A DNA stretch of 56,914 nt from an uncultured Gammaproteobacteria bacterium. GTDB taxonomy: Bacteria; Patescibacteriota; Microgenomatia; PFEM01; DATLAM01. Location of the stretch: the NCBI GenBank assembly GCA_964566925.1, contig CAZMIZ010000006.1:1-56914 (forward strand), given 5' to 3'. The notes below the pieces were generated by a model. That model ran no database searches, was not told where the DNA came from, and saw nothing but the letters and a program-made list of their open reading frames with translations. Both the position numbers and the translations under genes were made by a program. This document shows positions 2,621 through 33,275 of the stretch, one piece after another (positions within the stretch are counted from its first letter, which is position 1; every line of letters starts with the position of its first letter).

Positions 2621-3325
2621 GTGAATGGAAATCAGAAAGAAGACGGCGTAATAACCGGGGAAGCCCAAAAGGCAGCCATCCGCCAAGCAGCTAAAGAGGA
2701 ACTTGATGAGGTAGTAAGAAAACATTCCCACCTAACCGGAGAGAAACCAATCGCCATATGGAAAAGCGGTCTTCATGGAGTAGTTTTCGAGGCGTTAGCT
2801 AAATATGACCCTCTTATTCCCAATAATGAACAGGAGAATCTTCAACGATTAAATGATTTACTCTTAGGAGCTATCCCAATTCATGGAGGCTTGCTTTATG
2901 AGGATCGCAATCAGAACACTCCGCAAATCCCTGATCGGCTTTTAATGAGTTATGACCCTGAAAATCAGGCTGCCACGATTATCGGCGTAGTTGAAGTCAA
3001 GATCAATCCCTTAAAGTTAAGAGCTAAATTAAGTAGATTTAAAAAAGATCCCTTGTCTTTGCTTGCGGATCAAATTGAAGAAACCAACAGCTTTCTTTCT
3101 GAGAGCGCCAGGGGGCATTACATCTCCCCGCCAGTAAGAAAACTACTCGTCGAGCCTCAAAAAACAATACGACGCTGCCTCGCAATTCCTCGCGGAGATG
3201 CTTTGGCTCGAAAAGGACACTATCGTCATTGGGAAATAGTCGAATCAACTTTTTCTCTCGAAGAAGTTAAGGCGATTACTCTAGATCTTTTTATGGCTGA
3301 GTCAAGACCTCAGCCCCGCTCGTGA
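2621..3325 (+). CDS. Hypothetical protein, possible PD-(D/E)xK nuclease fold
   Basis: HGVVFE...QIPDRLLMSY...IIGVVEVK pattern; GTG start after a TATTAT -10. Confidence 0.5.
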   Translation: MNGNQKEDGVITGEAQKAAIRQAAKEELDEVVRKHSHLTGEKPIAIWKSGLHGVVFEALAKYDPLIPNNEQENLQRLNDLLLGAIPIHGGLLYEDRNQNTPQIPDRLLMSYDPENQAATIIGVVEVKINPLKLRAKLSRFKKDPLSLLADQIEETNSFLSESARGHYISPPVRKLLVEPQKTIRRCLAIPRGDALARKGHYRHWEIVESTFSLEEVKAITLDLFMAESRPQPRS

Positions 3326-3839
3326 TTTCTCTCACTCTTTCCTTGATTGTCTTAATAAACTTTTTATCTTCAATAAAAGGAAGGTTAATTCTTACGTTTT
3401 CGAGGGCGCCGTAAATAGCAGCAGTTGCCAGCTCAATGGCACAATGGGCATCAGAGATGGTATTCTTATTGCCCTCTTTGGCGGCAAAAGCGGCCAGTTT
3501 CAAAACCTCCAAAGATTTTTGGGCCGTTTGCAAGGGAATTTCGGCCGCCGTTTGGATTGCCTCTTGGCTTTTAGTTTTAAAAACAGCTTGATAGGCTAAG
3601 GCATCCTCATCAGCTAAACGGAGAAGTTCGTCTTTTAAATCTTCAGCTTTATCTAAAATGCGTTGAAAATCATCTTCAACCTCTTGATACTTCTCCTTAC
3701 CAATGGTTAAATTGGCCACCATTGCTACTAAACTAGCGGCGATGGCGCCGGCCACAGCCGAAGCACTCCCCCCACCCGGCACCGGTTTCTTGCTAGCTAA
3801 ATCATCTAAAAATTGCTTGATCCTTTGATCTTTAATCAT
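3291..3839 (-). CDS. fchA: Formiminotetrahydrofolate cyclodeaminase
   Basis: FLDDLASKKPVPGGGSASAVAGA, NKNTISDA, ALENVRINL. Confidence 0.92.
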   Translation of the reverse strand: MIKDQRIKQFLDDLASKKPVPGGGSASAVAGAIAASLVAMVANLTIGKEKYQEVEDDFQRILDKAEDLKDELLRLADEDALAYQAVFKTKSQEAIQTAAEIPLQTAQKSLEVLKLAAFAAKEGNKNTISDAHCAIELATAAIYGALENVRINLPFIEDKKFIKTIKERVREITSGAEVLTQP

Positions 3840-4734
3840 GTTTCATCCTCTCTTCTAAAACCTGATCTTTCTTGAATTCAATTAATTGAAGTGCCTTTAG
3901 ATCGACTCCCTGAAGCGCGGCCCGAGGGATCATTCCGTAGATTTCCGAACCTAAAACTTCAACGCCTCTTTTTTGGGCTTCCTTTTTAATTTTAGCAAAA
4001 ACAACATCCATGTTCGTTTTCTCAAAATCACAAAGATTCATGGAAACTTGAACAAACCCTTGATCTTTAATTGCAAAACCCATCGCCTTGACTGCCGGGA
4101 AGCCGCCATCTTTTTCCCGAATCAGTTTAGCAATTTCTTTAGCTACCTGAACATCCTGGGTATCCAGGTTAACGTTGTAAGCAATCAGAAATTTGCGGGC
4201 GCCGATGACCATCGCTCCAGCGGCGGGGTGCATTTTGCTCGGCCCAAAATCAGGCTTCCGATCTGGATTAGTGACAATTTCTTTTTTTAACCCTTCATAC
4301 TCGCCTTTTCTAACGTTGGCTAAGTTGGCTCGTTCTGGCCGGGTCGCCGCCGCTTCATAAAGATAAACCGGAACCTTTAGCTCCTCGCCAACCTTCTTCC
4401 CTAGGCGCTTGGCTAAAGCCACACACTCCTCCATTGAAACATTGGCCACCGGAATAAAGGGAACCACGTCAGTGGCCCCAATGCGGGGATGTTCACCATG
4501 ATGTTTTTCCATGTCAATTAAGGCCGTTGCTTTTTTGATCATTCCCCAAACCGCCTGGAGAACCGCTTCCGGTTCACCCACTAAAGTTACTAAAGAGCGG
4601 TGATGATCTTTATCCCATTCAACATCAAGGACTTTAACTTTCTCCCGCCCCCGAGCGACATCGGCAATGGCTTTAATAACCTTTTGTTTTCTCCCTTCGG
4701 AGAAATTTGGTACGCATTCAACCAGTTTATCCAT
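3832..4734 (-). CDS. ftcD: Glutamate formiminotransferase / 5-formyl-THF cyclo-ligase substitute
   Basis: LVECVPNFSEGR, DHHRS, HHGEHPRIGATDVVPFIP, GARKFLIAYNVNL. Confidence 0.95.
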   Translation of the reverse strand: MDKLVECVPNFSEGRKQKVIKAIADVARGREKVKVLDVEWDKDHHRSLVTLVGEPEAVLQAVWGMIKKATALIDMEKHHGEHPRIGATDVVPFIPVANVSMEECVALAKRLGKKVGEELKVPVYLYEAAATRPERANLANVRKGEYEGLKKEIVTNPDRKPDFGPSKMHPAAGAMVIGARKFLIAYNVNLDTQDVQVAKEIAKLIREKDGGFPAVKAMGFAIKDQGFVQVSMNLCDFEKTNMDVVFAKIKKEAQKRGVEVLGSEIYGMIPRAALQGVDLKALQLIEFKKDQVLEERMKHD

Positions 4735-4761
4735 TTGGGAAATATTATAACAGAAAGCTTT

Positions 4762-5328
4762 TTACCCCCGATAGACCTGATGACATTTGGCACAAACCGG
4801 AAAATATTCAGCTTCTTTGGTGGAGGCAATTTTGCCGGTTTTGCCGCTTACCCGTTCTGTATGGCTGGCTTTTTTTCCGCACTTCACGCAAATAGCAAAA
4901 AGTTCAATTTTTTCATCCGCCTTTTTAAAAAGATCCAGCGTCACTCCAAACGGCTTTTTGGTGTAGTCATATAAAAGGCCGGTGGCGTAGACATCAATTC
5001 CTTTAGCTAAAAGTTCGGCCACTAGCTTCTTGGCCTTGTCTTTGGGGAAAAAATTGATATTGTCAATAATCACTTTCATCTCGTCAGTAAAAATATATTT
5101 TAAAATCCGCTCCGGCTGATCAGGGTCAATAAAAATCACCGGGAGGGAACGTTCATCATGAGAGTTAGTGTGGCCCATACCGCCGCTACCGGCTACCTCT
5201 GCTTTAAAACAGAGAACGGGGTAACCCAGTCTGGTTAAAACCCGAAAGAGGGTCAAAGCCTTGTTGGTTTTACCAGCAAACATGGGGCCGGCGATAACCG
5301 TCAATCTACCTTTTTTCTTTCTGCCCAT
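4762..5328 (-). CDS. tdk: Thymidine kinase (TK1-type), with DE->DN change in the catalytic motif
   Basis: IAGPMFAGKT P-loop; CVKC...CAKC zinc lasso; IIDNINFF where IDEGQFF is expected. Confidence 0.85.
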   Translation of the reverse strand: MGRKKKGRLTVIAGPMFAGKTNKALTLFRVLTRLGYPVLCFKAEVAGSGGMGHTNSHDERSLPVIFIDPDQPERILKYIFTDEMKVIIDNINFFPKDKAKKLVAELLAKGIDVYATGLLYDYTKKPFGVTLDLFKKADEKIELFAICVKCGKKASHTERVSGKTGKIASTKEAEYFPVCAKCHQVYRG

Positions 5329-5339
5329 TTGCCTCCATT

Positions 5340-6542
5340 TTATTTCCCTAGAAATTCTTTTTCAACCACCAGCTTGACTTGTTCAAAAACTTCCTCTATT
5401 GGCTTTGAAGCGTCAATGGTAACCACGTTAGGAATCTCTTTTAAAAGTCTCTTATATCGAGCTCGCTTCTCTCTTAAAAGTTTTAGCTTTTCAAATTTAC
5501 CATATTCCTCCCCGGTCTCTTGATGGCGCTTTCGGACTCGCGCCAGGGCCACTTCAGGCTTGAGGTCAAAGAAAAAGACTTTATCAGGCGTCGGTCGGAA
5601 CCAAGAAAACAAAAAATTAACTAGGGCTACCTCTTCTTCGGTTTTAGCCTGATAAACCAAAGCCGAAAGATAACAACGGAGACTGATTATCCAGCGGCCT
5701 TTTTTTAGGACTGGCAGGATAAACCGCTGGATGTAATCCAGTCGATCTCCAGCTAGTAAAAAAGCCTCAACCATTGACCCAATTGGTTCTTTTCGCCATT
5801 GTTTTATCGTTTCTTTCCACCTAAGACTAGGGTGAAAAATGATTTCAGCTCTTTTACCTTTCTTTACTAAAAATTTTTTAAGCAACTTGGCAATCGTTTC
5901 TTTGCCTGTCCCCGAAGTACCCTCAAAAGCAAAATAATTGCCTGAGAAAACAGGCCAATTCCTGTTCCCCCGATCAAGTAAGCTCAAATAAAGCGGAATC
6001 AGCGGATATTGGTTTTGGGCAATCTGGCGGCTTTGGCGAAACTCCAAACCCTTAACCCGATCTTTCATCTTCTTTAGCCTCACAAAAGCCTTGGTCAGAC
6101 TTTCCCCTGCTTCGGCTGTATAAAAAAAGGAACGCAAGATGCCTTTGGCACCAAAACCGTCTAAAAAATCCGCATCTTTTAAAATTTTCGCTTCTAAAAC
6201 TTGAGGTGAATGTTTAGGTTCATCGTGTTCAGCAATGATATGACAAACTTTTTCAATTTCTTCCTTTTTGAAGCCCGCCTTTCTTAAAATCGGTTTAGCG
6301 AAACTAATCGATTCCCTTCTCGTGGCTTCGCCGTGAAGTTCCGGCTTTTTTCTACCTAAGTCATGGAGGAGGGCCGCGGCGATTAAAATTTCTTTATCGC
6401 CACCATGGGTCTTAGCTAAAAAAAGACAGTTTTCCGCCACACCAATAAGGTGATTAAGATCATGGGTGGGGCTTAGTTTTTCTCTTTTCAGCTGGGCAAG
6501 AAGAGCTTTGATTCTTTCTTTCTGAAAATTTTTATCAGTCAT
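5340..6542 (-). CDS. HD-domain phosphohydrolase fused to thymidylate kinase-like domain
   Basis: N-term HDLNH...LLHDLGR...EHD...DADFLD; C-term FEGTSGTGKET, RCYLSALVYQ, PDKVFFFDLKPEVALAR, IDASKPIEEV. Confidence 0.85.
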   Translation of the reverse strand: MTDKNFQKERIKALLAQLKREKLSPTHDLNHLIGVAENCLFLAKTHGGDKEILIAAALLHDLGRKKPELHGEATRRESISFAKPILRKAGFKKEEIEKVCHIIAEHDEPKHSPQVLEAKILKDADFLDGFGAKGILRSFFYTAEAGESLTKAFVRLKKMKDRVKGLEFRQSRQIAQNQYPLIPLYLSLLDRGNRNWPVFSGNYFAFEGTSGTGKETIAKLLKKFLVKKGKRAEIIFHPSLRWKETIKQWRKEPIGSMVEAFLLAGDRLDYIQRFILPVLKKGRWIISLRCYLSALVYQAKTEEEVALVNFLFSWFRPTPDKVFFFDLKPEVALARVRKRHQETGEEYGKFEKLKLLREKRARYKRLLKEIPNVVTIDASKPIEEVFEQVKLVVEKEFLGK

Positions 6543-7467
6543 TTTTTTGGATTTCCTTCAGCTCGGCAGGCAAATTACGAATGTCTTTGATGATTCTCCC
6601 TAAGGGATGGTTCTTAACATACTCTTCACTCCAGGGAGGAACATAAGGGGTTTTAAAGAGGAAAAAAGGAAAACCCATCATCAACGGCACGGAGCCAACT
6701 AAAGAAAAAATATCGCCGACCGTCACCAGTCTGGCACCATCGTTGGCCTGATCTAGGAGAGCTCGGTAATAAACTGGCCGCCTCAAATCAACCTTAAACT
6801 CCCCATTAACCGGCAAAGTCTGAATCTTGCCAAGGTCAGGGTGGTTAAAATAATAATCCCAGCTGGCATCCATATGGTATTGGCGGGTATCGCCCAGGAT
6901 ATCAATCTTGTATTTGAATCCTTTCTTATCGTCTCCTTCTTCGGTAATCCCGATAGTTTCTAGGTTTTTCTTGACCTTGTCAGTTTTAGAATTGGTCAAA
7001 ACAATCGGCTGGATTTGGGGATGACCAATCATTTCAATCAAAGTTTCTTTGGCTCCTTCTCGAAAACTAGGCTCAAGAAAAGCGGTGTTCTTATGGAAAA
7101 GATAGTTGGTGCATTCGGCGACCGGATCATATTCTCGACCACCAAAAGCAGCTTTTACTCGTTCTTGATAAAAACCGTTGCTAGAAAGCATTTCTTGGAT
7201 GGTGGTCGTGTTTAGGGTAAAAGCGCCTTCATAACTGTAAGCCGCCGGCAGGCCGTTAACTTTCCAGAGATATTTTTGGGGTTCGGCCATAATTTTTTTC
7301 TGGGTCGCCCAATAATCTCTTTTAACCCGAGCCCTGGGAATGCCTAAAATTTCTTTGGCCAAAACATCAATCGCTTTCTCAATCAACTGATTAACTTGAT
7401 CTTCCTCTCGAGTCAAGGTGCCGTCGTAATCAATAATAACTTTCATCTTTTTCTTTTTTGGAGCCAT
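6535..7467 (-). CDS. HAD-superfamily hydrolase-like protein
   Basis: VIIDYDGTL motif I, VLTNS motif II, VGD motif IV. Confidence 0.7.
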   Translation of the reverse strand: MAPKKKKMKVIIDYDGTLTREEDQVNQLIEKAIDVLAKEILGIPRARVKRDYWATQKKIMAEPQKYLWKVNGLPAAYSYEGAFTLNTTTIQEMLSSNGFYQERVKAAFGGREYDPVAECTNYLFHKNTAFLEPSFREGAKETLIEMIGHPQIQPIVLTNSKTDKVKKNLETIGITEEGDDKKGFKYKIDILGDTRQYHMDASWDYYFNHPDLGKIQTLPVNGEFKVDLRRPVYYRALLDQANDGARLVTVGDIFSLVGSVPLMMGFPFFLFKTPYVPPWSEEYVKNHPLGRIIKDIRNLPAELKEIQKND

Positions 7468-8066
7468 TTTTTGACCTCGCTAGTTAGATATTCTTTGTCG
7501 GTTTTTCTTTTTACATAATTGATCTTTTTGGTATCGATTGTCAAGACAGGAATTTTAGTTTTTCCAATAAAACTTTCACAATTATCAATTAATCGCTGCC
7601 AATAATTTTTAGGGGTCTTCAATTCATACTTTCTCCCCCGGGAAGCAATCCTGGGCAACAGTTGGTCAAGACCAACCTGAAGGTAAATTAAAAGGTCGGG
7701 AACGGGCAGATCTTCAAGCAGGCTTTGGTAAATCATCTCATAAAGATCCCATTCTCTATCCTTAAGTCTGGCTTTAGCAAAAACCAGAGCGTCTTGAAAG
7801 ATGGGCGGCTCGTGAATAACTCCCTTTTTCACCAGCAAGGGAGTAATTTTTTTCATCTGCTTGGTCTTTTGGATCAAGAAAAAAACCTGAGAATGAAAAC
7901 TCCACCGCTTCATATCTTGATAGGAATCAGCTAAGAAGGGGTTGTTTTCAAACTCTTCCTCAAAAATTCGGAAGCCAAGCTCTTTTCCTAAAATCCGCGC
8001 CACCGTCGTCTTACCCGCTCCAACCGGCCCCATGATAGTAATGTAAGGATGTTTTTTCTTGACCAT
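7443..8066 (-). CDS. Deoxynucleoside kinase (Dgk/Dck family)
   Basis: ITIMGPVGAGKTT, ENNPFLADSYQDMKRWSFHSQVFFL, PDLLIYL, RIASRGRKYE. Confidence 0.88.
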   Translation of the reverse strand: MVKKKHPYITIMGPVGAGKTTVARILGKELGFRIFEEEFENNPFLADSYQDMKRWSFHSQVFFLIQKTKQMKKITPLLVKKGVIHEPPIFQDALVFAKARLKDREWDLYEMIYQSLLEDLPVPDLLIYLQVGLDQLLPRIASRGRKYELKTPKNYWQRLIDNCESFIGKTKIPVLTIDTKKINYVKRKTDKEYLTSEVKKWLQKRKR

Positions 8067-8068
8067 AG

Positions 8069-8779
8069 TTACGCCCGCTCTTTGTTAATCCCAGGTTGCC
8101 CTTCTTTGGCAAGATGGGCAGATAAGATTTGCGAGGCAACGGCTTCTACGTTTCGCCTGAAGACATCGAAGCATTCGGTCCCGTTTTCGATGATGTAAGT
8201 CGGCACCCCCATCTCCTTTAATCCAGGCAATAGCCTACCCATAAAATCGCTACCACCAAAGAGGGTTTCCATTGCCAAAGGAGGAACAAAAAAGGAAACT
8301 TCTCCAAGCTGGGACCGAGGGTTTTCTTTGCGCTTCTCATTCCAAGCAAAACGTAAATGCCGAGGCGTCCGAACATAAACCATCACCGATCTCTGCCAAA
8401 TTCCTCTAGGGACAAGGTTGTCTTCCAATAATCTTCCAAAGCTCAAGTCAAGTTCTGGATAACGACTGCCAATACCCCTAGCTACTTCAATGAGATTTAT
8501 TTGTCTTTCTTTTGCTAGAGGGACTTGGGCCACCCAACGACGAACGGCTTCATCAAGGGGATATTGGTGGGTGATACAGAAAGCTGGATTGCCTTCGTTT
8601 TCAAGAGGCCGAACATGCCAATTTCTCTCCTTATCTTCTTCGACTATACTCACCAGGGTCTCACCGTCACTTATCAGCTGACAGATAAAACCCTTCCGTC
8701 CCATTAGCTCTCTGGTAATTGACCGAGCAGCTGTCTTGCCTCCGCCGGCGACCCCGGCGAAGATAATAATGTCTCTCAT
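8069..8779 (-). CDS. Uncharacterised P-loop (nucleotide kinase-like) protein
   Basis: IIIFAGVAGGGKT at N-terminus, LIEVARG, VRTPRHLRFAWNEKR. Confidence 0.6.
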   Translation of the reverse strand: MRDIIIFAGVAGGGKTAARSITRELMGRKGFICQLISDGETLVSIVEEDKERNWHVRPLENEGNPAFCITHQYPLDEAVRRWVAQVPLAKERQINLIEVARGIGSRYPELDLSFGRLLEDNLVPRGIWQRSVMVYVRTPRHLRFAWNEKRKENPRSQLGEVSFFVPPLAMETLFGGSDFMGRLLPGLKEMGVPTYIIENGTECFDVFRRNVEAVASQILSAHLAKEGQPGINKERA

Positions 8780-9555
8780 TTTACTTTAAACTGCTTCCTA
8801 GCCTCGGGCCATTTATCCTTGTAGATATGCATGGAAACCGAGAAATGGGTATAGGTGCCGGTTTTGACCCCAATCCCATCAGCCAGGTATTTTTGGAGGG
8901 CAGTGAAAGCAAAAGCATTGCCTGGCCAGGCATTATATAAATCGTTCGTTTTCATCACCACAAACAGGTGAAGTCGCTTATCCACCAATTGGGGGTAAGC
9001 CAAGACGAGACAAGGAGAAGAAGTTTCCTCCCGTCGAGGCCCAAATTTCATCAGGTCCCGGTAGGGAATCCAGGTGTGCATCACCACCGTTCGCCGGGTT
9101 GGGTCTTTTTTCAAAGTCTTGATGGCCGCCTCCACCTGATCAATTCGCCTAACCACACATTTTTCGTCGGCCACAATCTTTTTAACCTGGAGCGTCAATT
9201 CTTTTTCGTCCGCCGAAACCGCTGGCAACCAAGCCCGAACCTTACAATCTGGATAACAACGAAGGCGCGAATGATAGGTGTATTCAAACTCTTTTTCTTT
9301 TTCTGGATCAGGATAGCCGTTAATTAGGGTTTCAGCGTATTCCTCCACTGTCTCTCTAGAATCGTCAGCCAGTTTTGAAAGCCGAGGTTCTTTAAAAGGA
9401 TCGCTTACTTTAATGATCATCGGCAGGTCTAAAGTGGCAATCTGGTACTCGGGGGCCTGAACATATCTCTTGTGGCCCTTTTTGAGCACCAATTTGCAAG
9501 CCTTTTCCCAGACCTGACCCAAAGTCTTAGCTTCAACGAGAGTGGTGTCGTACAT
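8776..9555 (-). CDS. thyA: Thymidylate synthase-family enzyme, archaeal-type
   Basis: YTYHSRL, DPTRRTV, SPCL (catalytic Cys), MKTNDL, AWPGN, SMHIY. Confidence 0.82.
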   Translation of the reverse strand: MYDTTLVEAKTLGQVWEKACKLVLKKGHKRYVQAPEYQIATLDLPMIIKVSDPFKEPRLSKLADDSRETVEEYAETLINGYPDPEKEKEFEYTYHSRLRCYPDCKVRAWLPAVSADEKELTLQVKKIVADEKCVVRRIDQVEAAIKTLKKDPTRRTVVMHTWIPYRDLMKFGPRREETSSPCLVLAYPQLVDKRLHLFVVMKTNDLYNAWPGNAFAFTALQKYLADGIGVKTGTYTHFSVSMHIYKDKWPEARKQFKVK

Positions 9556-10113
9556 CTATCTTTCGCCGGTGAAGCGCCAACCTCGCTTCTTTAAAATTAT
9601 CTGGGGGTAGCCTATCCGAACAAAGTTGCGCTTGTCAATCCCCAATTGGGAGAAAATTTGCATAATTTTTTGTTGAGCTTCTTTACCCTTCTCTTTTCCG
9701 GTAATGATCTCCATTTCAATAAAATCTCCTAATCCTTTAATTTGGTCAAGACAAAAAACAATTTTCCCTAACTTCCCTGGGATTCTTTTTTTCTCAAGGA
9801 TTAACGCCAACCCAAAACCCATGGCTTCGATTAACCTTCTTGCTTCTTGGGGGCTATCAATCCCAAATTCATACTCCACCCAAACACCCTTTCTTTCAGT
9901 CAAACCCTTGTAAGCCAGAAAATGCTTGCCGTTCTCACTCCGGATTCTTAAAAGATAGTCACCCGACTTTTGTGATTTTGTCTTAATCGCTTCTCTGTGG
10001 TAAAACAACCAGTCTTTCTGGTTTAAAACCGAGCCGAATTGAGCCCTCATGGCTTTCAGCTTTCGCCTCAGGGTGGAAAGATTTTTAACTTTAGCCTTGA
10101 CCTCTACTTCCAT
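9556..10113 (-). CDS. cyaB: CYTH-domain protein (class IV adenylate cyclase family)
   Basis: MEVEVKAKV ExExK motif, LRIR, LAYKG, LDQIKGLGDFIEME, GY. Confidence 0.88.
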   Translation of the reverse strand: MEVEVKAKVKNLSTLRRKLKAMRAQFGSVLNQKDWLFYHREAIKTKSQKSGDYLLRIRSENGKHFLAYKGLTERKGVWVEYEFGIDSPQEARRLIEAMGFGLALILEKKRIPGKLGKIVFCLDQIKGLGDFIEMEIITGKEKGKEAQQKIMQIFSQLGIDKRNFVRIGYPQIILKKRGWRFTGER

Positions 10114-10118
10114 TTTAA

Positions 10119-11138
10119 TTAAGAAGATTCTGGTTCTCTTAGATCTCTTTCTATTAGCGACAAAAGCATTTGTCGATGCCTCTTTGGATAGTCATTTTTT
10201 GCCTCCCCAGGTCTCTTTTCTAAGTTTTGAACGAAATTATCTATTTGGTCCGGCGTCATTTCTGCCCCGATCTTTCTCGACCAGGCTACCGGAAGCTTCA
10301 CCCCTCTCTGTTCAGACCACTCAATTGCCAAATCCCCTGAAATAAATTCCAAAAACGCTCTTAAATAATCTTCCTCTTCCACCTTCTCCTTTGTTTTGGG
10401 GAATCTTAACTTCCTTATAAGTTCATTCACCCGTTTAAAAATGAACCTTTCGGAAGAAAAAATGCGCCTAATTGATACATCCTTCTCTCTCGCTAATAAA
10501 TGACTGGGGTAAGTATGGGCTCCCCCCATGATAACGACTATCCTTCGCCTGGCCTGTTCTTCTTCAGAACCTGAGAAGATCCTATCCTTAATTTGGTCTA
10601 CCATTACGGTCTCCCGCGCTTCGACTTCTTGTACCGTCGCTTGAATCCAGTCTTTAAATAGGCGATACGCTTTCTTAATCTGACCAGCCTCTTTGACAGT
10701 CGATAGCCGCTCCTCTAACTGCTCTATCCGTTTTCCAAAAGTTTTCGTAACAGGTTCCTCTTCACTAACATCAATTAGAAAAAATTTTTTACCTGTTCCT
10801 CCGATTTTCCTAATCAGCGCCTTAATTATGTCTGGCTCTAAAGGTAATAAATCTGATAACCCCACTGTTGTAGAATGGGCTTTATCTGCGTCATAAGGGG
10901 TGTCTGAGAGTTCATTTATCCGCTTTTCAATTTTTCTTCTCTCTTCGTTGGATAACCCCATCGCTTCCACTAGAATCGTATCCCCTTCTTTTAAGGCGAT
11001 TTCTGCCGATCTAAAAACGTTTTTACTATGCCTCACAAAAATGAAAGTACAGGGTGCTTTAGGGTTCTCTATTTGCTCAGTAGCAACGTCGGGGGGCTCT
11101 GTTTTTCCTGGTTTTTCTAAGTTCGTTTCGCCACTCAT
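10119..11138 (-). CDS. Hypothetical protein (weak ChaN/TraB/EreA-like motif pattern)
   Basis: 339-aa ORF in operon orientation; IFVRH, LVE, RETVM, VVIMGGAH. Confidence 0.55.
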   Translation of the reverse strand: MSGETNLEKPGKTEPPDVATEQIENPKAPCTFIFVRHSKNVFRSAEIALKEGDTILVEAMGLSNEERRKIEKRINELSDTPYDADKAHSTTVGLSDLLPLEPDIIKALIRKIGGTGKKFFLIDVSEEEPVTKTFGKRIEQLEERLSTVKEAGQIKKAYRLFKDWIQATVQEVEARETVMVDQIKDRIFSGSEEEQARRRIVVIMGGAHTYPSHLLAREKDVSIRRIFSSERFIFKRVNELIRKLRFPKTKEKVEEEDYLRAFLEFISGDLAIEWSEQRGVKLPVAWSRKIGAEMTPDQIDNFVQNLEKRPGEAKNDYPKRHRQMLLSLIERDLREPESS

Positions 11139-11140
11139 TT

Positions 11141-12004
11141 TTAATCAAAAAAGCCGAATTCGTCGTCGGCTTGCTTCTTCTTTTTTTTCAAAACTACCGG
11201 TTCGTCTTGAACATAATCAAGGCCATTTTTTAAACAAACCTCTGCCTTAGCTAGTTCTCGGCCTAAATAAGCGGCATGGTCTTTAGCCTCCTTAAAATCA
11301 CCAATCAGTTTCTTATTAATAATAGTATCGGTGATCTCATGGGCTGTTTGGCCGGCAATTTTTAAATCCATTTCAAAATTAGAATTGTAGTGAGCAGCAA
11401 TAATTAATTTCTTCTTTTTATCAATTGTAATCTGGAACGAGCCTTTCGGATCAGTCATATATTGAGCGTCAACTTTCTTGGCTCTCACCATTTTTATTTT
11501 TCGTTTTTTAATCTTAACGACTTTCAATCGCTTGCCGGTAAATTTACCTGGTTTTTTGCGCCAAAGTTCCTCAATCTTAAACTGGATTTTTTGACTATTG
11601 GTTTCGCCTCGCAAATCGACCACTAAAATCTGTTTTCTAAACCTTTCAATTTCCTCAAGGGTTAGATGTTTTAAAAGAGGAATTGAGCCTTTGGAGCCAA
11701 CCACCCTCATTTCTTTATCCACCCCATTCTTGGCTAAAGCTAGAAGAGTTTGGCCAACCGCATGGCCTTTAGAAACTTTACCGCAAACAATCAAAAACCG
11801 AATATTGGGATTGGCGATTAAATTCTTAACAATCCGCTCCACCCCCACGTTTTCGGTCACGCATTTCCCAATCACCGCTATCTTTTCCAGGTCAACCTTA
11901 ATCCCGGAAATAGTGGCTTCAGTACAAACCGCCACCGGAGAATGAGAATTGCCCAACCGATAACGTCCCACCTCAACTGGCCAACTACCCGCCTTTTTTG
12001 CCAT
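11141..12004 (-). CDS. MtrA-like corrinoid-binding protein fused to DUF4346
   Basis: WPVEVGRY.LGNSHSPVAVCT, TENVGVERIVKNLIANPNIRFLIVCG..SKGH.VGQ, IERFRKQ; C-term DPKGSFQI...HAAYLGRELAKAE...YVQD. Confidence 0.88.
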   Translation of the reverse strand: MAKKAGSWPVEVGRYRLGNSHSPVAVCTEATISGIKVDLEKIAVIGKCVTENVGVERIVKNLIANPNIRFLIVCGKVSKGHAVGQTLLALAKNGVDKEMRVVGSKGSIPLLKHLTLEEIERFRKQILVVDLRGETNSQKIQFKIEELWRKKPGKFTGKRLKVVKIKKRKIKMVRAKKVDAQYMTDPKGSFQITIDKKKKLIIAAHYNSNFEMDLKIAGQTAHEITDTIINKKLIGDFKEAKDHAAYLGRELAKAEVCLKNGLDYVQDEPVVLKKKKKQADDEFGFFD

Positions 12005-12022
12005 CTTTCTTTAAAAACTTAA

Positions 12023-13795
12023 TTAAACTTTAAAAACTTTTCTCTCTTTAAACTCGCGCCGCTTTCCCTTATTCCACCATTTCACCGGCCGAAAATAGCC
12101 GACGATCCGCGAATAGACCTCCGTCTCTCGACCACAAGTTGGGCAGCGTTCCTGCTTACCTTTTAACCGGCCATGGTCAGCACAGATGCTAAAGGTAGGC
12201 GTAACCGTAAAATAAGGCAGTTTGGTATTCTCGGCAATCTTCTTGACCAATTTTTTTGTCGTTAGGTAACTGGGCATCTCTTCCCCTAAAAAGCAATGGA
12301 AAACGGTGCCGCCGGTATAAAGCGACTGGACTTCGCTTTGATGAAGTAAGGCCTCCCAAAGATCATCAGTGGCGTCCACTGGTAACTGAGTGGAGTTGGT
12401 TAAATAAGGCGCCTTTTTGGTCCCCGCGGTCACCACCCCCGGGCAAAACTGCTGATCTAAAAGGGCCAATCGATAGGTAGTTGATTCACCAGGAGTCGCC
12501 TCAAGATTATAAAGATGGCCTGTTTCTTTTTGGAATTTAATCAACTTATCGCGCATAAATTTCAAAACCTTAATGATAAACGCTTTTCCTTTTGGCTGAT
12601 CAATCCCCACCCCTAGAAGATTAAGGCAGGCTTCATGGCCCCCGATAATCCCCATGGTGGAAAAATAATTTCTGAAAGTGCCCAAATAAGCTTTGGTATA
12701 AGGCATTAAGCCTTTCTTGAGATTGGCGGTAATCTTTCCTCTCTTAATCTCCAAAGATTCCTTGGCCAATTCCATGTATTTTTCTAACAACTCAAAGAAA
12801 CGTTTTTCCGTCTTTGCCTTAAAAGCAAGTCGGTTAAGATTAATAGTCACGTTGCCAATCGACCCAGTCGAATCACCCTTACCCCAAAGATTGCCTGGCT
12901 GTTGCATCAGCTGTTGCAGGTTTAAGTGCAGACGGCAACACATCGCCCGGATAGATCGAGGATCAAGATTGCTACCAATATAATTTTGAAAGTAGGGTAA
13001 ACCATACTTGGCGGTTAATTGAAACAAAAGTCGGGCATTTTCAGAATCCCAATCAAAATCAGGAGTCAGATTGTAGGTGGGAATGGGAAAGGTAAAAAGT
13101 CTCCCTTTATCGTCACCCTCAAGCATGATTTCCAAGAAGGCTCGGTTAATCAGGTCCATTTCTTTCTGAAAGTCAGCATATTTTTTCTTTTGGGGCTTGC
13201 CGCCAATAATCGCCGGTTCTTTAGCTAAATCTTGGGGAACCACCCAATCAAAGGTGAGATTGGTAAAAGGCATCTCAAATCCCCATTTACTAGGAACGTT
13301 AAGAGAAAAAACGAGCCGCTGGATGTTCTGCTTAACTTTTTCGTAACCTAGCTTATCTTCGGCCACAAAAGGCGCCAGTAAAGTGTCCACCGAAGAGAAA
13401 GCTTGAGCCCCAGCAAATTCATTGTAGGTTGCTCTTAAAAAATTAATCATGTGAATGATGGCGGCATCAAAGTGCCTGGCCGGTCCGGAATCCATCTGCC
13501 CAGGAACATGCCCGAAACCCATTAACAAAAGATTTTTGAGTGACCAGCCAGCACAATAACCAGTTAAACCGTGGGTTAAGTCGTGGATATGGAAACAGCC
13601 TTCCTCATGAGCTTTTTTAATTTTTGGGGGGTAAACTTCATTTAAAGTATAGTTAGCCACAACTGCCCCGGCGGTGTGAAGAACTAGACCGGAAAAGGAA
13701 TAATTCGAATTACTATTAGCTTTTGTTTTCCAGCCATTTTCAGTAAGGTAATCTTCAACTACCTTTTTAACGTTAAGCAATTTCCCGTCTTCCAT
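12023..13795 (-). CDS. nrdD: Anaerobic (class III) ribonucleoside-triphosphate reductase, no ATP cone
   Basis: HIHDL, YCAGW, AMCCRL, NLEATPGEST, YTGGTVFH, CADHG..CPTC, YSRIVGY glycyl-radical loop. Confidence 0.96.
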   Translation of the reverse strand: MEDGKLLNVKKVVEDYLTENGWKTKANSNSNYSFSGLVLHTAGAVVANYTLNEVYPPKIKKAHEEGCFHIHDLTHGLTGYCAGWSLKNLLLMGFGHVPGQMDSGPARHFDAAIIHMINFLRATYNEFAGAQAFSSVDTLLAPFVAEDKLGYEKVKQNIQRLVFSLNVPSKWGFEMPFTNLTFDWVVPQDLAKEPAIIGGKPQKKKYADFQKEMDLINRAFLEIMLEGDDKGRLFTFPIPTYNLTPDFDWDSENARLLFQLTAKYGLPYFQNYIGSNLDPRSIRAMCCRLHLNLQQLMQQPGNLWGKGDSTGSIGNVTINLNRLAFKAKTEKRFFELLEKYMELAKESLEIKRGKITANLKKGLMPYTKAYLGTFRNYFSTMGIIGGHEACLNLLGVGIDQPKGKAFIIKVLKFMRDKLIKFQKETGHLYNLEATPGESTTYRLALLDQQFCPGVVTAGTKKAPYLTNSTQLPVDATDDLWEALLHQSEVQSLYTGGTVFHCFLGEEMPSYLTTKKLVKKIAENTKLPYFTVTPTFSICADHGRLKGKQERCPTCGRETEVYSRIVGYFRPVKWWNKGKRREFKERKVFKV

Positions 13796-13917
13796 GATCG
13801 ATGATTATTTTTCCTTTGATGAATTACCACGGACAGTAGCCGTGGTCTCTGTGTCCAAAATAGCATCCAAATGAAAGCTTGGTCAACTGGTAAAAACTGG
13901 ATCAAAGCAAACCTTTT

Positions 13918-15876
13918 TCACTTTGGCTTTCGCCAAGAAGCCCAGTTGCACTTCGGCCAGTTGGAGCAACCGTAAAACTGCCTTCCCTTCTTGGTTTTCT
14001 TAATCACCACGTCGCCCCCGCATTTCGGACATTTGACGCCTTCCAGTTTGGGGGTATAAGGGGCAGTGTAATCACATTCCGGAAATCGAGAACAAGATAG
14101 AAATTTACCAAATCTCCCAACTCGGATAACTAATTTACCCTTTTTACATTTCGGACAATTTTCCTCGGTCACCTCAGTCGGCACTTGAACCCTTTCCGCT
14201 ACTGCCGTTACCCCGGATATCTTCTCGTCAAAGGGTTGATAAAAATCCCGAATGACCGGCACCCATTTTACTTCGCCGCGGGCAACGGCGTCTAATTTGT
14301 CCTCCATCTGGGCGGTGAACTCATAATTGACAATGTCTGGAAAATATTCAACCAGAAAATCATTTACCGTTATTCCGAGGGGGGTCGGCTGAAAGCGTCC
14401 CTCAACTTTCTCGACATACTGCCGTCCCTGAATGGTCGAAACAATGGGTGCATAAGTCGATGGCCGGCCAATACCGCGCTCTTCAAGAGCTTTAATCAGC
14501 GTTGCTTCCGAGTATCTCGGCGGCGGTTGGGTAAACTTTTGCTCGGAATTAATTTTAATCAGGTCCAACTCGTCGCCTTTTTCCAGCTCGGGCATCGCTT
14601 CTTCTTTGTTTTGGACCCCACCGTAAATCTTTAGCCAACCATCAAACTTAATTACTTTTCCTTCAGCCATTAAAAGATAAATGTTCTTCTTACCAGCGGC
14701 TTGAACTAAAACCTTGGTTTGATCCCAAATAGCCGCTTTCATCTGGGAAACAATGGCTCTTTTCCAAATTAAATCATAAAGTTTTTCTTCGTCTCTTGTC
14801 CGATGTTTGACGCTTGATGTTTGCTTGGTCGGATCAGTCGGTCTGATTGCCTCGTGAGCCTCTTGAGCTACCTTTGACTTGGTTTTATAAAACAGGGGAT
14901 TCTCCGGGAGATACGGATTACCAAAAGTAGTCTTGATATATTGGCGAATCATCTCGATGGCTTCTTGAGACAGGACAACCGAGTCTGTCCGGTGATAAGT
15001 AATTAAGCCCTTCTCATATAAAGATTGGGCGACACGCATGGTTCTTTTACTAGAAAAGCGGAGAGTTGAAGCCGCTCTCTGTTGAAGGGTTGAGGTGGTA
15101 AAAGGAGGTGATGGCCTCTGCTTAACTTCCTTCTTCTTCACTTCGCCTACTTCATAACCAGCCTTTTTGAGTTCGGTGACAATCTCTTTGGCGGTTACCT
15201 CGTCTTCCACTTTAGCTTTCTGGCCGTTGATTTTTGCCAACTTGGCGAAAAAGCTCGGGACATCCGGCCGCTTCCCCCCCAGATGGCGCCTTAATTCGGT
15301 AATAATCTCCCAATATTCCTCGGGAACAAATTTCTCAATCTCTCTTTCTCGATCAACAATGAGACGAACCGCTACTGACTGAACTCGGCCTGCCGAAAGG
15401 CCGCGCCGAATCTTCCGCCAGAGGAGGGGCGAAAGTTTATAACCTACCAATCGGTCCAAAATCCGTCGGGCTTGTTGGGCATCGACTAATTGAAGATTGA
15501 TTTTGCCAGGTTGAGCCAGGGCTTTTTCAATCGCCGACTTAGTAATTTCATGGAAGACGATTCGGGCAAGATGATCCTCTTTTTTGCCTAATATCGTGGC
15601 CACGTGATAAGCAATCGCTTCTCCCTCCCGATCCGGGTCGGTGGCCAGATAAATCTTCTTGGCCGCTTTAGCCGCTTTTTTCAGCTCACTGACTACCTCT
15701 TTCTTCCCGGCCACCAATAAATAATCTGGCTTAAAATCGTGCTCGACATCCACGCCGAGCTTCTTCTTAGGTAGATCCCGGATATGTCCCATGGTGGAAG
15801 TAATCCGGTAATCGTTGCCCAAGAATCGAGTTAAGGTTTTGGCCTTAGTTGGTGATTCAACGATGATTAAATCCAT
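13918..15876 (-). CDS. topA: DNA topoisomerase I
   Basis: LIIVESPTKAK, ATDPDREGE, SAGRVQS, LITYHRTDS, C-terminal zinc ribbons. Confidence 0.98.
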   Translation of the reverse strand: MDLIIVESPTKAKTLTRFLGNDYRITSTMGHIRDLPKKKLGVDVEHDFKPDYLLVAGKKEVVSELKKAAKAAKKIYLATDPDREGEAIAYHVATILGKKEDHLARIVFHEITKSAIEKALAQPGKINLQLVDAQQARRILDRLVGYKLSPLLWRKIRRGLSAGRVQSVAVRLIVDREREIEKFVPEEYWEIITELRRHLGGKRPDVPSFFAKLAKINGQKAKVEDEVTAKEIVTELKKAGYEVGEVKKKEVKQRPSPPFTTSTLQQRAASTLRFSSKRTMRVAQSLYEKGLITYHRTDSVVLSQEAIEMIRQYIKTTFGNPYLPENPLFYKTKSKVAQEAHEAIRPTDPTKQTSSVKHRTRDEEKLYDLIWKRAIVSQMKAAIWDQTKVLVQAAGKKNIYLLMAEGKVIKFDGWLKIYGGVQNKEEAMPELEKGDELDLIKINSEQKFTQPPPRYSEATLIKALEERGIGRPSTYAPIVSTIQGRQYVEKVEGRFQPTPLGITVNDFLVEYFPDIVNYEFTAQMEDKLDAVARGEVKWVPVIRDFYQPFDEKISGVTAVAERVQVPTEVTEENCPKCKKGKLVIRVGRFGKFLSCSRFPECDYTAPYTPKLEGVKCPKCGGDVVIKKTKKGRQFYGCSNWPKCNWASWRKPK

Positions 15877-15953: not shown

Positions 15954-16325
15954 CTATTTAAATCTACTAACTATCGTAGCAAAAATTTTGGTAAATTCCA
16001 TCGCTTCTTTTCTAAGAGCATTAATTTCCTTCTTTAAATCCGGATTAAGCTCTAAAAGCAATTTTAGCCAATATTCCGTCTCCCTGGATTCTTTTTTGGC
16101 AATTTTGATTTTATGAACAAAGTCTTTAGCGCTTTCTGCTTCACAAGCCTCTCGATAGTTGGCCCCGACCGATGTCCCAGATCGAATAAGCTGAACAATC
16201 AATGGTTTATTAAGAGAATCTTTGGGAAATCTCTGTACCAATCTAAGTATTTTCTTGGCAAACTCTAAAGTTCTCTCAAGAAGTTTTTGATTGGCTTTCT
16301 TTCTGTCAAAGTCCTTCCTCACCAT
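15954..16325 (-). CDS. Four-helix-bundle protein (23S rRNA intervening-sequence protein / Avd-like)
   Basis: QLIRSGTSVGANYREA..AES.KDFVHKIKIAKKESRETEYWL. Confidence 0.92.
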   Translation of the reverse strand: MVRKDFDRKKANQKLLERTLEFAKKILRLVQRFPKDSLNKPLIVQLIRSGTSVGANYREACEAESAKDFVHKIKIAKKESRETEYWLKLLLELNPDLKKEINALRKEAMEFTKIFATIVSRFK

Positions 16326-22977: not shown

Positions 22978-22978
22978 T

Positions 22979-23674
22979 TTATCTTAAAATCTCATTTACT
23001 GTCGCCTGCAAATTAGTAATCAATTTATAAGTGAGCGTCTGCGAGAGAATCTCTTTGACTTTATCCAAAACTGTTTCTTGGTTTTTTAGTTTTTCAGTTT
23101 CTCCGTCATTCTTAGCTTTAACGGCTAAGAACGGGTGTTCTCCGGTAACTTTGACTTTCTTCCCACTTTCAGTTTCCAATTCATAATAGCCTTCTCTGGT
23201 ATATTCCAGAATTCCAGAAACCGTATTTTCCTTAATTTCTCCTGTTTCTGGATCAAATGAAGAAACAAGATCACCTTCTTCCAAATCTTTTATTTGGAGT
23301 TTTGGAGTTTTGCCTGCCTTGCCGGCGGGCAGGGAGCTTTCGGTATTTACCTCCGTTTCTCCCGTAAAACATCCGCCGCCGCCGCAACACTGACTGTATT
23401 CGTTCCCGTCATCATCCGCGCATTCTTGATAACTAACAGTTTTTGTGACACCAGGAGGATTACATAAATCAACGCCGCATTCTTGGCAAGGTTCCCAACC
23501 TTCGTCACATAATGACTGTGGACAACCACTCGAAACACTATAACAAGCCAAACAGGTCCCTGGAGGAATCCAGGTATCTCCTGCTAAAACTATTTTAGGC
23601 AGAAGAAATAAAGATAAGATTAAAATGAAAAAAAATCCTAAAAATAACTTTTTAAGATTCATCAGGCTCCTCAT
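22979..23674 (-). CDS. Secreted Cys-rich protein ending in the N-terminal half of a Hint domain
   Basis: Signal peptide ending VLA/GD; GGGG-CFTGETEV...IKDLEEGDLVSSFD...KVTGEHPFL (Hint blocks A and B). Confidence 0.8.
   Translation of the reverse strand: MRSLMNLKKLFLGFFFILILSLFLLPKIVLAGDTWIPPGTCLACYSVSSGCPQSLCDEGWEPCQECGVDLCNPPGVTKTVSYQECADDDGNEYSQCCGGGGCFTGETEVNTESSLPAGKAGKTPKLQIKDLEEGDLVSSFDPETGEIKENTVSGILEYTREGYYELETESGKKVKVTGEHPFLAVKAKNDGETEKLKNQETVLDKVKEILSQTLTYKLITNLQATVNEILR
23313..23333. repeat. REP-like palindrome inserted in frame (encodes LPAGKAG)
   Basis: CCTGCC-TTGCCGGCG-GGCAGG. Confidence 0.65.
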
Positions 23675-31316: not shown

Positions 31317-31319
31317 GAA

Positions 31320-32783: not shown

Positions 32784-32849
32784 CAAAAGATTTTGGCTTC
32801 TTAGTCATCTGATAGCCCGAGTCTTGCTTTAGTATGATAAAATCCAGGT

Positions 32850-33275
32850 GTGACAGAAAGACTTTCTCCAATAACAGTTGGGTTTCAAAGAACCGTCATT
32901 AACGTTGCCAGTCTTAGGGTCAATGCTAAAAACCCAGAAGAAAGAATCCAAGCGGTTCCCAACTCGGAAAGCATAAGGGCGGCTGTTTTTCTTCCAGAAG
33001 ACGGCCATTTAGAGATTGCGGATAAGCCTTGGGAAGGCCACGCTGGGCTTTGGCTTAAAAGGGCAGGTGTTTGCCAAGAAGAAGGGCTTAATCCGCCATC
33101 AGCTGAGACCGTTTCCGGAGAATGTTTTGAGTTTGAAGGCGAAAGATATCTTCATCTTTACATTGACCCAAGCCAAGAGGTCATTGAAGCTCTGCAAACA
33201 AATTATCCTGAGTTAATTCTCTTAGGCCTGGGTTTTAAACCTCTCCCTTCTGTCAAGGAAGCTTCAGGAGCCTAG
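32850..33275 (+). CDS. Hypothetical protein
   Basis: 141-aa ORF, GTG start 6 nt after TGA-TAAAAT. Confidence 0.55.
   Translation: MTERLSPITVGFQRTVINVASLRVNAKNPEERIQAVPNSESIRAAVFLPEDGHLEIADKPWEGHAGLWLKRAGVCQEEGLNPPSAETVSGECFEFEGERYLHLYIDPSQEVIEALQTNYPELILLGLGFKPLPSVKEASGA

Follow-up and report, generated by a model that had tools for sequence, protein, structure and literature searches.

The window analyzed here is a stretch of 56,914 nucleotides (57 kb) on contig CAZMIZ010000006.1 from an uncultured bacterium. Between positions 3291 and 13795 it carries 12 consecutive open reading frames (ORFs), all on the minus strand, among which the gene for a soluble MtrA-type corrinoid protein fused to a DUF4346 domain (MtrA-DUF4346) precedes that for a divergent enzyme of the ThyA family of thymidylate synthases (the ThyA-like enzyme). 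We propose that these are the two halves of a two-protein thymidylate synthase, in which MtrA-DUF4346 would donate the methyl group from a methyl-corrinoid, the ThyA-like enzyme would act as a methyl-corrinoid:dUMP methyltransferase, and no dihydrofolate reductase (DHFR) would be needed; we put the probability of this reading at roughly 0.55. That the corrinoid protein is in some way a functional partner of this ThyA clade we regard as highly probable. The broader claim, of a third, cobalamin-dependent class of thymidylate synthesis in which a protein-bound methyl-corrinoid methylates Cys-activated dUMP and is loaded from methyl-pterin by MtrH in archaea and by some other loader in bacteria of the candidate phyla radiation (CPR), stands in our judgment at about even odds. 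A dTMP route using a corrinoid one-carbon (C1) carrier was one of two readings offered by the original prediction for this DNA, and it gains strong support, at the level of sequence comparison, from gene adjacency, gene fusions, archaeal operons with MtrH, methylenetetrahydrofolate reductase (MTHFR) and serine hydroxymethyltransferase (SHMT), and an invariant pair of cobalamin ligands.

The pairing of the two genes proved conserved when the neighborhood of MtrA, DUF4346 and ThyA was compared across CPR, DPANN and other genomes, a check that the original prediction had proposed, and it did so from either side. A search from the MtrA side returned 589 relatives in a one-genome-per-species collection, from which 21 CPR and DPANN loci were kept; in 18 of these the ThyA-like gene follows MtrA-DUF4346 within ~0–2.4 kb. 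Starting from ThyA, we retrieved 80 metagenome loci and limited the counts to those with enough upstream sequence. A DUF4346 domain is encoded no more than 3 kb upstream of the ThyA-like gene in 68 of the 69 loci with >600 nt upstream, and an MtrA domain no more than 5 kb upstream in 50 of the 51 with >2 kb; both exceptions are contig-end truncations. The pairing spans more than 100 loci from bacteria and archaea with otherwise unrelated neighbors. No MetE gene is found near the CPR and DPANN pairs, no second thymidylate synthase was seen in any locus, and in 40-odd methanogen loci there is no ThyA within 10 kb of mtrA. The other conserved neighbors in DPANN are housekeeping genes (ribosomal protein L16, a nucleotidyltransferase, GlmS and a methylase).

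Gene fusions strengthen the link. A dCTP deaminase (DCD) is fused to the N-terminal side of MtrA-DUF4346 in 13 of the top 120 MtrA-DUF4346 protein clusters (for example in locus L082), and protein P0291 (locus L089) is a single 496-aa polypeptide in the order MtrA, ThyA, DUF4346. Both kinds of fusion speak for a coupling, physical as well as functional, and not for mere neighborhood. The widely conserved core is MtrA-DUF4346 with the ThyA-like enzyme, usually accompanied by DCD, whose gene immediately precedes the pair in CPR loci and closely follows it in archaeal ones.

The cluster as one 10.5-kb unit, as it was first described, does not hold beyond close relatives: the whole operon is a lineage feature, which mostly recurs, with substitutions, in these alone. 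In locus L083, where the ThyA is 88% identical, the order is topA, DCD, MtrA-DUF4346, CYTH, ThyA, P-loop protein, HAD-like protein, HD-TMK, TK, FtcD, FchA, one further ORF and rpsB-tsf-frr; in loci L086–88 (83% identical) it is topA, DCD, MtrA-DUF4346, ThyA, TK, dNK, HAD-like protein and TMK (the abbreviated names are explained with the genes of the window, below). In every relative examined DCD holds the slot that nrdD fills in the window, and nrdD and orf339 occur in the cluster only here.

The ThyA-like enzyme (259 aa; 8776–9555, minus strand; catalytic Cys182 encoded at 9010–9012) is a divergent, C-terminally short member of its family. Domain calls, here and below, are from Pfam and NCBIfam profile scans, with NCBIfam scores read against curated cut-offs. 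Against PF00303 the enzyme scores 52.4 bits for a cut-off of 24.3 (5e-14), with the C-terminal half alone matching. Its best model is that of the methanogen-type ThyA (TIGR03283, typified by MJ0757), which it matches over nearly its full length (9e-40), although the score of 136.3 bits is under the equivalog cut-off of 174.55. Both are short forms of ThyA, but the ThyA-like enzyme carries an insertion of ~50 residues. The C1 donor or cofactor of the methanogen-type enzyme is itself not settled (PMC9012536).

Identity to solved ThyA structures is only ~17%, and sequence searches against them reach 1e-6 at best, but the AlphaFold2 (AF2) model of the ThyA-like enzyme has the ThyA fold (Foldseek TM 0.60–0.66, probability 1.0). 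The likeness to canonical ThyA (EC 2.1.1.45) extends to the active site. An hhalign alignment to the E. coli enzyme pairs C146 with C182, R126/R127 with R154/R155, D169 with D205, N177 with N213, H207 with H243 and Y209 with Y245; R166 and S167 are replaced by K202 and T203. Among 95 unique ThyA-like sequences, C182, R154, R155, T203, N213 and Y245 are each present in 91–95, with 94–95 for the nucleophilic Cys and the Arg pair, and N213, the Asn that specifies uracil, in 94. The position of His207 (243) is His in 34, about one third, and Gln in 57, and Lys202 replaces Arg166, the contact for phosphate and thiolate, in 93. Because the catalytic and dUMP-site residues are essentially invariant, the dUMP-activating machinery and the uracil specificity appear intact, and the likely substrate is dUMP.

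It is on the folate side that the enzyme departs most from canonical ThyA. The C-terminus of canonical ThyA closes over the folate, and the tryptophans of its IWDEW motif (Trp80/Trp83) bind it. The ThyA-like enzyme stops 14 residues past Tyr245, the equivalent of Tyr209, where E. coli ThyA runs on for 55, so that ~50 C-terminal residues are lacking; the IWDEW tryptophans have no counterpart, there being no Trp between residues 17 and 108. Of the canonical folate-binding elements checked, only the Asp169 equivalent (D205) is retained. The insertion, at residues ~87–136, is extremely conserved and contains two invariant cysteines, Cys104 and Cys133. We infer that a conserved segment of this kind, modeled at low confidence, is the pattern expected of a partner interface. 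Unlike canonical ThyA, the enzyme is always encoded beside, or fused to, a corrinoid protein. Enzymes of this fold can change their cofactor: the flavin-dependent phage dCMP hydroxylase AfhB (PDB 9iqu) matches the model of the ThyA-like enzyme with a TMt of 0.73, and with its flavin in a ThyA fold it provides a precedent for cofactor switching.

MtrA-DUF4346 (287 aa; 11141–12004, minus strand) matches MtrA (PF04208) at 5.5e-47, with 160 bits against a cut-off of 25, and the DUF4346 family (PF14251, PterinBD-DUF4346) at 1.8e-22. It has 490 homologs in CPR and DPANN, and its AF2 model has a confidence (pLDDT) of 83. The MtrA domain (11501–11995, minus strand) is of the cobalamin-binding, Rossmann-like type: the family profile matches cobalamin-bound MtrA (PDB 5laa) at 7e-58, and the model superimposes on that structure in Foldseek with TMt 0.89, a root-mean-square deviation of 1.6 Å and 45% identity. 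In MtrA, His84 is the lower axial cobalamin ligand and Glu54 its hydrogen-bond partner (Wagner et al., PMC4915002). Their equivalents in the window protein are His81 (codon at 11762–11764) and Glu51 (codon at 11852–11854). Where aligned, the Glu/His pair is invariant in the MtrA domains of the ThyA-linked loci (79/79 and 80/80, respectively), as it is in our alignment of MtrA-DUF4346 homologs (A1). The protein is thus predicted to bind a corrinoid and, we suggest, to carry its methyl group.

Compared with the MtrA of the MtrA–H complex, the energy-conserving methyl-tetrahydromethanopterin:coenzyme M methyltransferase, the window protein comes from a non-methanogen, is fused to DUF4346 and has no C-terminal membrane anchor, DUF4346 standing where the transmembrane helix would be; in this it is soluble, like the cytoplasmic MtrA homologs (5laa, 5l8x). 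Its meander motif reads GSIPLLKH as against GAIPF/YxEN. The window contains none of the genes mtrB–H, and MtrH was not found by tblastn either. Source databases name proteins of this kind "tetrahydromethanopterin S-methyltransferase subunit A" or "hypothetical", and the function of MtrA-like and MtrAH proteins in non-methanogens has been described as unclear (PMC4915002; PMC11291895).

A Lys-rich linker of ~35 residues (~151–186), modeled at low confidence, joins the MtrA domain to DUF4346 (11204–11452, minus strand; PF14251, 1.8e-22), which the model builds from three strands and two helices. Foldseek gave no PDB match for the DUF4346 fold in a search with the whole model, which is dominated by the MtrA domain. 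No version of the system lacks DUF4346, which in archaea stands alone after MtrH or core-MetE. The protein ends in an acidic/aromatic tail, ADDEFGFFD (11144–11170, minus strand; pLDDT <50). In alignment A1 the corresponding motif, DE[FY]GW[FH]D, is conserved in CPR copies only and absent from DPANN copies, and the tail may be a docking peptide. The DNA that encodes it (11144–11172) also forms a perfect hairpin with a 7-bp stem followed by a T-run, with a terminator-like score, which could be a coincidence or an internal attenuator.

A longer version of MtrA-DUF4346 (318–460 aa), with an N-terminal extension, occurs in Bacteroidota, Acidobacteriota, Nitrospirota and Chloroflexota (loci L022–L036; for example L027, 562–1518, and L028, 1268–2230). 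No ThyA is encoded nearby, and the neighbors are signaling proteins (a PAS histidine kinase, a cNMP-binding protein and SpoIIE). Here the two-domain protein is put to another use, one that is uninformative for the ThyA question.

Uncultured archaea place the ThyA-like enzyme in a different operon, which suggests where a methyl group could come from. Their enzymes are 57–60% identical to that of the window, on contigs that also encode GINS, NurA and ribosomal proteins of archaeal type. In order, the operon comprises MtrA (~196 aa), MtrH (~272 aa), a stand-alone DUF4346 (~100 aa) and the ThyA-like enzyme, often followed by DCD, in genes that abut or overlap; MtrA and MtrH are fused in loci L081 and L140. 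MtrH is present in all 13 such loci with >2 kb upstream, and SHMT and MTHFR lie just upstream in all nine with >6 kb. This gene order would spell out a pathway, from serine to methylene-pterin (SHMT), to methyl-pterin (MTHFR), to methyl-corrinoid (MtrH acting on MtrA), and from there to an acceptor.

The identity of that acceptor is suggested by sister operons of the Thermoplasmata type, where the MtrA-MtrH...DUF4346 module encloses a core-MetE (PF01717, ~300 aa) in place of the ThyA-like enzyme (loci L042, 5943–9653; L064, 4033–7503; L071, 9054–12708), an arrangement found also in L140 (42–2609). An MTHFR homolog lies upstream of the module in two of these four loci, L042 and L071. Core-MetE has been shown to use methylcob(III)alamin, but not methyl-THF (THF, tetrahydrofolate), as methyl donor, a role for which a corrinoid protein has long been suspected in the cell (PMC7005905). 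Because core-MetE holds the same slot in the sister operons, we place the ThyA-like enzyme in the slot of the methyl acceptor; holding this slot, and being fused to the carrier in P0291, it is the candidate corrinoid:acceptor methyltransferase (MT2). The same operons make MtrA/DUF4346 a candidate for the corrinoid protein, long sought, that serves core-MetE physiologically in archaea.

What the sequences show directly is which genes and domains are present, which residues are conserved, and how the genes adjoin, fuse and vary between operons. Corrinoid binding, physical partnership, the chemistry of methyl transfer and what the accessory genes do are predictions, which could be combined as follows. 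Cob(I)alamin on the MtrA domain, held base-off/His-on through His81 and Glu51, would be methylated from an N5-methyl-pterin, and in the archaeal versions it would be MtrH, fed by SHMT and MTHFR, that loads the methyl group onto the corrinoid. The flexible linker would swing the methyl-Co(III) domain over to the ThyA-like enzyme. There, Cys182 would add to C6 of dUMP, and the C5 enolate would take the methyl group by SN2, with release of dTMP and Co(I). No hydride would be drawn from the pterin and no dihydrofolate would be formed; as the pterin would never be oxidized, DHFR would be unnecessary. By analogy, methyl-Co(III) as electrophile would follow the logic of the S-adenosylmethionine (SAM)-dependent C5-pyrimidine methyltransferases, and that of the homocysteine thiolate in MetH and core-MetE.

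The proposed route can be set against the known systems that it most resembles. MetH and core-MetE would share its logic, from methyl-pterin to Co(I) and from methyl-Co(III) to a nucleophile, and in archaea an identical MtrA-MtrH-DUF4346 module accompanies core-MetE; here, however, the acceptor would be a carbon, C5 of Cys-activated dUMP, and not a Zn-activated thiolate, on a ThyA fold and not a MetE/homocysteine barrel. The three-component corrinoid methyltransferases (MtaB/MtaC/MtaA and the bacterial O-demethylases) are matched by the archaeal version, with MtrH as putative loader, MtrA with DUF4346 as carrier and the ThyA-like enzyme as unloader, but the carrier is of the MtrA type instead of B12-binding/B12-binding_2, the CPR version has no recognizable loading methyltransferase (MT1), and no activase was identified. 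With ThyX the route would share its outcome, dTMP made independently of DHFR and without oxidation of the pterin; ThyX, however, is not homologous, and uses FAD, NADPH and methylene-THF but no corrinoid.

Several points weigh against a methyl-corrinoid donor. Its support amounts to guilt by association. No gene for MtrH, MTHFR or SHMT lies within 10 kb in the window or in any locus of the CPR or Aenigmarchaeota type, so that the step that would methylate the corrinoid is missing where it matters most. The model of the ThyA-like enzyme has low confidence in the conserved insertion. Asp169 of canonical ThyA binds the pterin ring, and the retention of its equivalent, D205, therefore leaves room for pterin binding by the ThyA-like enzyme. 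With 57 kb of the genome visible, folA, folD, metF or mtrH may lie elsewhere. Finally, archaeal extracts made dTMP from formaldehyde and tetrahydrosarcinapterin, according to the summary of Nyce and White (1996) given in 10.1101/2021.12.15.472764, which fits a methylene-pterin route. Labeling with formaldehyde cannot separate the two routes, however, because extracts can reduce methylene to methyl.

The last of these points, with the retained Asp, would be at home in a more conventional scheme, in which the ThyA-like enzyme is an ordinary reductive methylase using a methylene-pterin (THF or similar to tetrahydromethanopterin) and MtrA-DUF4346 is an accessory, for example regenerating reduced pterin as a substitute for DHFR or delivering the C1 carrier. 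Where ThyA occurs and no DHFR is evident, something must do the recycling, and DUF4346 is also found C-terminal to a pterin-binding protein resembling dihydropteroate synthase (a TIGR00284 match). We nonetheless consider this scheme unlikely. By comparison the MtrA domain is predicted to be a near-perfect cobalamin binder, with its invariant His/Glu pair, and we know of no corrinoid-dependent pterin reductase. MtrH and MTHFR in the archaeal operons point to the methyl and not the methylene level, and the folate-closing C-terminus and the Trp80/Trp83 motif, as described above, are absent.

Alternatively, the corrinoid could serve as reductant: a methylene-pterin would give its CH2 to dUMP, and Co(I) and a proton would reduce the exocyclic methylene, as FADH2 does in ThyX. 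Such chemistry would avoid dihydrofolate, and it would explain both the absence of MtrH from the CPR loci and the retention of the pterin-binding Asp. On the other hand, regenerating Co(I) would require two low-potential electrons per turnover, with no reductase encoded nearby, and the archaeal MtrH and MTHFR and the module shared with core-MetE would be left unexplained, which makes this reading doubtful.

Equally doubtful is that the genes are merely co-localized, with MtrA-DUF4346 (and MtrH, where present) serving another acceptor, such as core-MetE or an unidentified methyltransferase, beside a self-sufficient ThyA. Locus L140 could be read in this way, as MtrAH-coreMetE-DUF4346 form one block there with ThyA-DCD 2.3 kb downstream, both acceptors being near one MtrAH and DUF4346; and SHMT, MTHFR and ThyA, all folate genes, might cluster anyway. 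Set against this are the single polypeptides that join MtrA, ThyA and DUF4346, or DCD, MtrA and DUF4346, and an adjacency near 100% over the >100 loci, with no MetE near the CPR and DPANN pairs.

The second reading of the original prediction, that the cluster makes or salvages a modified pyrimidine nucleotide (hydroxymethyl- or hydroxy-dUMP/dCMP, with the altered kinases processing the product for DNA hypermodification), could appeal to the unusual motifs of TK, dNK and TMK and to the presence of AfhB and the CMP hydroxymethylase MilA among the solved proteins closest in sequence to the ThyA-like enzyme, but it found no support and is very improbable, given the near-invariant uracil-specifying Asn, partners that supply dUMP (DCD) and phosphorylate dTMP (TMK), a chromosomal housekeeping setting, from topA to rpsB-tsf-frr, in cellular CPR and DPANN genomes, no glycosyltransferases, aminotransferases or other modification enzymes, no phage copy, and no second thymidylate synthase in the loci. 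A phage origin of the cluster was also considered and rejected: none of the unassigned genes has a PHROG match, no viral contig with MtrA-DUF4346 was found, and the published viral mtrA is of the Methanobrevibacter type.

To our knowledge, ThyA and ThyX are the only established routes of de novo thymidylate synthesis, and a corrinoid route on a ThyA fold, if true, would be a third class. In open-access and bioRxiv full text (subscription journals lay outside this coverage) we found nothing on DUF4346, and nothing that connects thymidylate synthase to MtrA, MtrH or a corrinoid; the component families are known, whereas their pairing as a putative B12-dependent dTMP route appears undescribed in the literature covered. 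If the proposal is correct, many CPR bacteria, DPANN and other archaea would depend on B12 for DNA synthesis and have no need of DHFR, and the DNA replication of ultra-small CPR and DPANN symbionts would be tied to scavenged vitamin B12. It would account for pterin recycling in organisms that have ThyA but no DHFR, may explain why the cofactor of the methanogen-type ThyA has never been pinned down, and would predict that antifolates acting through DHFR are without effect. It would also correct a widespread mis-annotation, under which MtrA-DUF4346 proteins can be miscounted as genes of methane metabolism. The parts that a direct test requires are now defined, namely a set of three or four soluble proteins of small size and one naturally fused protein.

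A further hint of B12 dependence comes from the CPR loci with enough upstream sequence, where a DUF4430 protein (15 of 27) and a DUF6580 membrane protein (16 of 27) are encoded directly upstream of DCD (L082, 6856–7988; L005; L008; and ~15 of the Parcubacteria-type loci L098–L135). The pair does not occur in the window. DUF4430 is the C-terminal domain of B12 binders of the transcobalamin type (PMC4350170), and from its position the pair is likely to serve B12 capture and uptake.

As for the rest of the operon, the best explanation of the cluster is a dTTP-supply operon of a CPR bacterium (Microgenomates/Gottesmanbacteria-like). The order of transcription is nrdD, MtrA-DUF4346, orf339, CYTH, ThyA-like, P-loop, deoxynucleoside kinase (dNK), HAD-like, HD-dTMP kinase (HD-TMK), thymidine kinase (TK), FtcD and FchA. 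The description of 12 co-oriented, overlapping or abutting genes with these limits was confirmed. From nrdD to the ThyA-like gene the junctions are gaps of 18, 2 and 5 nt and one abutting pair; from there to FchA they are a 4-nt overlap, a 2-nt gap, overlaps of 25 and 8 nt, gaps of 11 and 27 nt, and an 8-nt overlap. The reported absence of folA, glyA, folD and thyX from the cluster extends to the entire window, in which metF was not found either; nor were dut and dcd recognized among its scanned ORFs of at least 110 aa.

The first gene, nrdD (12023–13795, minus strand; 590 aa), encodes a class III (anaerobic) ribonucleoside-triphosphate reductase (PF13597, 5e-174; NF006126, 900 bits against 548) with the C-terminal glycyl-radical motif RIVGY and the Cys-rich Zn site both present; no NrdG activase was recognized among the scanned window ORFs of at least 110 aa. 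NrdD would make dNTPs, where in relatives DCD would instead supply dUTP or dUMP. The gene first described as an orphan, orf339 (10119–11138, minus strand), in fact belongs to a rare family, with 72 remote homologs (23–31% identity) among 1.84 billion representatives, although nothing in Pfam, PDB or PHROG matches it, even when PDB and Pfam are searched with a profile. Its position, after the corrinoid protein and before CYTH, is peculiar to this window; neither L083 and L086 nor any other locus contains it. The invariant H37, E58, D123, G205 and H208 (alignment A3) suggest a metal-dependent hydrolase, and may resemble the GxxH...E...GxxH motifs of the TraB/Tiki type.

The CYTH protein, or triphosphate-tunnel metalloenzyme (9556–10113, minus strand; PF01928, 4.8e-20; TIGR00318, 76.7 bits against 58), has an intact EXEXK motif; among solved proteins it is closest to CYTH members from archaea, one of which is the triphosphate tunnel metalloenzyme Saci_0718. 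Only in this lineage does a CYTH gene separate those for the corrinoid protein and ThyA, and L001, L083–85 and L092 show it in this position too. Downstream of the ThyA-like gene, and overlapping its stop by 4 nt, starts the gene for a P-loop protein (8069–8779, minus strand; 236 aa), an ortholog of which sits after ThyA in L083, L092 and L093. Its earlier designation as a kinase stands as far as the Walker A motif (GVAGGGKT), but the protein has no Pfam, NCBIfam, PDB or PHROG match. The assignment of the HAD-like protein (6535–7467, minus strand; 310 aa) depends on an intact DxDGT motif I (DYDGT) and a sub-threshold PF00702 match (1e-4); it has no sequence relative in PDB, its orthologs in L083 and L086 are ~70–80% identical, and it is probably a nucleotidase or phosphatase.

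Three kinases had been said to have altered catalytic motifs, which is partly right. The dNK (7443–8066, minus strand; PF01712, 2.6e-41) has a normal P-loop but reads EPP where the canonical motif is ERS, as does that of L086. The TMK (PF02223, 5.4e-31; TIGR00041, 107.5 bits against 83; 5379–5927) is fused to an HD phosphohydrolase (PF01966, 8.9e-14; 6159–6458) in one gene (5340–6542, minus strand), a fusion found also in L083. The TMK consensus is GK[ST]T and DRx, and E. coli TMK reads GKTT and DRH; in the window and L083 we find GKET and LRC, and such P-loop variation occurs in other TMKs. The TK1-type TK (4762–5328, minus strand; PF00265, 1.3e-23) retains its P-loop (GPMFAGKT) and the CxxC...CxxC zinc cysteines, but every NCBIfam TK equivalog scores under cut-off, and it has D-N (IIDNINFF), like L083, where E. 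coli Tdk and L086 have D-E, the acidic pair that supplies the catalytic base. Since L083 shares the altered TK and TMK motifs and L086 the altered dNK motif, these are lineage traits and not decay, and the three genes appear to be under selection. TK and dNK would salvage nucleosides and TMK would phosphorylate dTMP to dTDP, while CYTH, HD and the HAD-like protein would trim phosphates, with CYTH and HD as the candidates for trimming triphosphates.

The last two genes encode FtcD, a glutamate formimino/formyl-transferase (3832–4734, minus strand; PF07837 (FTCD_N), 1.1e-76; PF02971 (FTCD), 5e-27), and an FTCD_C protein, either a formimino-THF cyclodeaminase or an FchA-like methenyl-THF cyclohydrolase (3291–3839, minus strand; PF04961, 1e-55); both have the same position in L083. 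Outside the cluster, fmt (35040–35918, plus strand; PF00551, 1.8e-41, and PF02911) encodes methionyl-tRNA formyltransferase, which consumes 10-formyl-THF, and its presence indicates that the organism uses folate. FtcD and the FchA-like protein would yield methenyl- and formyl-THF, mainly for Fmt; as no FolD or MetF is in view, it is more plausible that they feed 10-formyl-THF to Fmt than that they supply ThyA.

The operon is flanked upstream by topA (13918–15876) and downstream by two ORFs without an assigned family, followed by rpsB-tsf-frr. A promoter-like site (TTGACC, 18 nt, TATTTT, with an extended TG; 13857–13886, minus strand) in the 122 nt that separate topA from nrdD, found by a consensus scan, is a possible operon promoter. 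The 22 promoter-like sites in the region are, however, not clearly above chance (15.7, sd 3.4, in shuffles), and the terminator scan likewise did not exceed chance. As for RNA control by B12 or THF, Rfam gives only tRNAs and a ribosomal L10 leader in the window; the leader (RF00557, 55713–55832) lies upstream of rplJ and is barely over the gathering score.

The remainder of the window is typical CPR housekeeping (mreBCD, PBP2, dprA, def-fmt, nusG-rplKAJ and an AmmeMemoRadiSam trio), and the named best matches are to Gottesmanbacteria and Patescibacteria. One ORF between dprA and topA (15954–16325) belongs to the "23S rRNA intervening sequence protein" family, and at 20380–23674 an 865-aa ORF without a Pfam match precedes a 231-aa ORF with domains resembling Hint/intein-splicing domains. 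In the AmmeMemoRadiSam-type trio (30291–34462), the genes for the radical SAM protein and the LigB/Memo-like protein are separated by one for a 5'-nucleotidase, and the LigB-like ORF overlaps that of AMMECR1, the third member, by ~130 nt.

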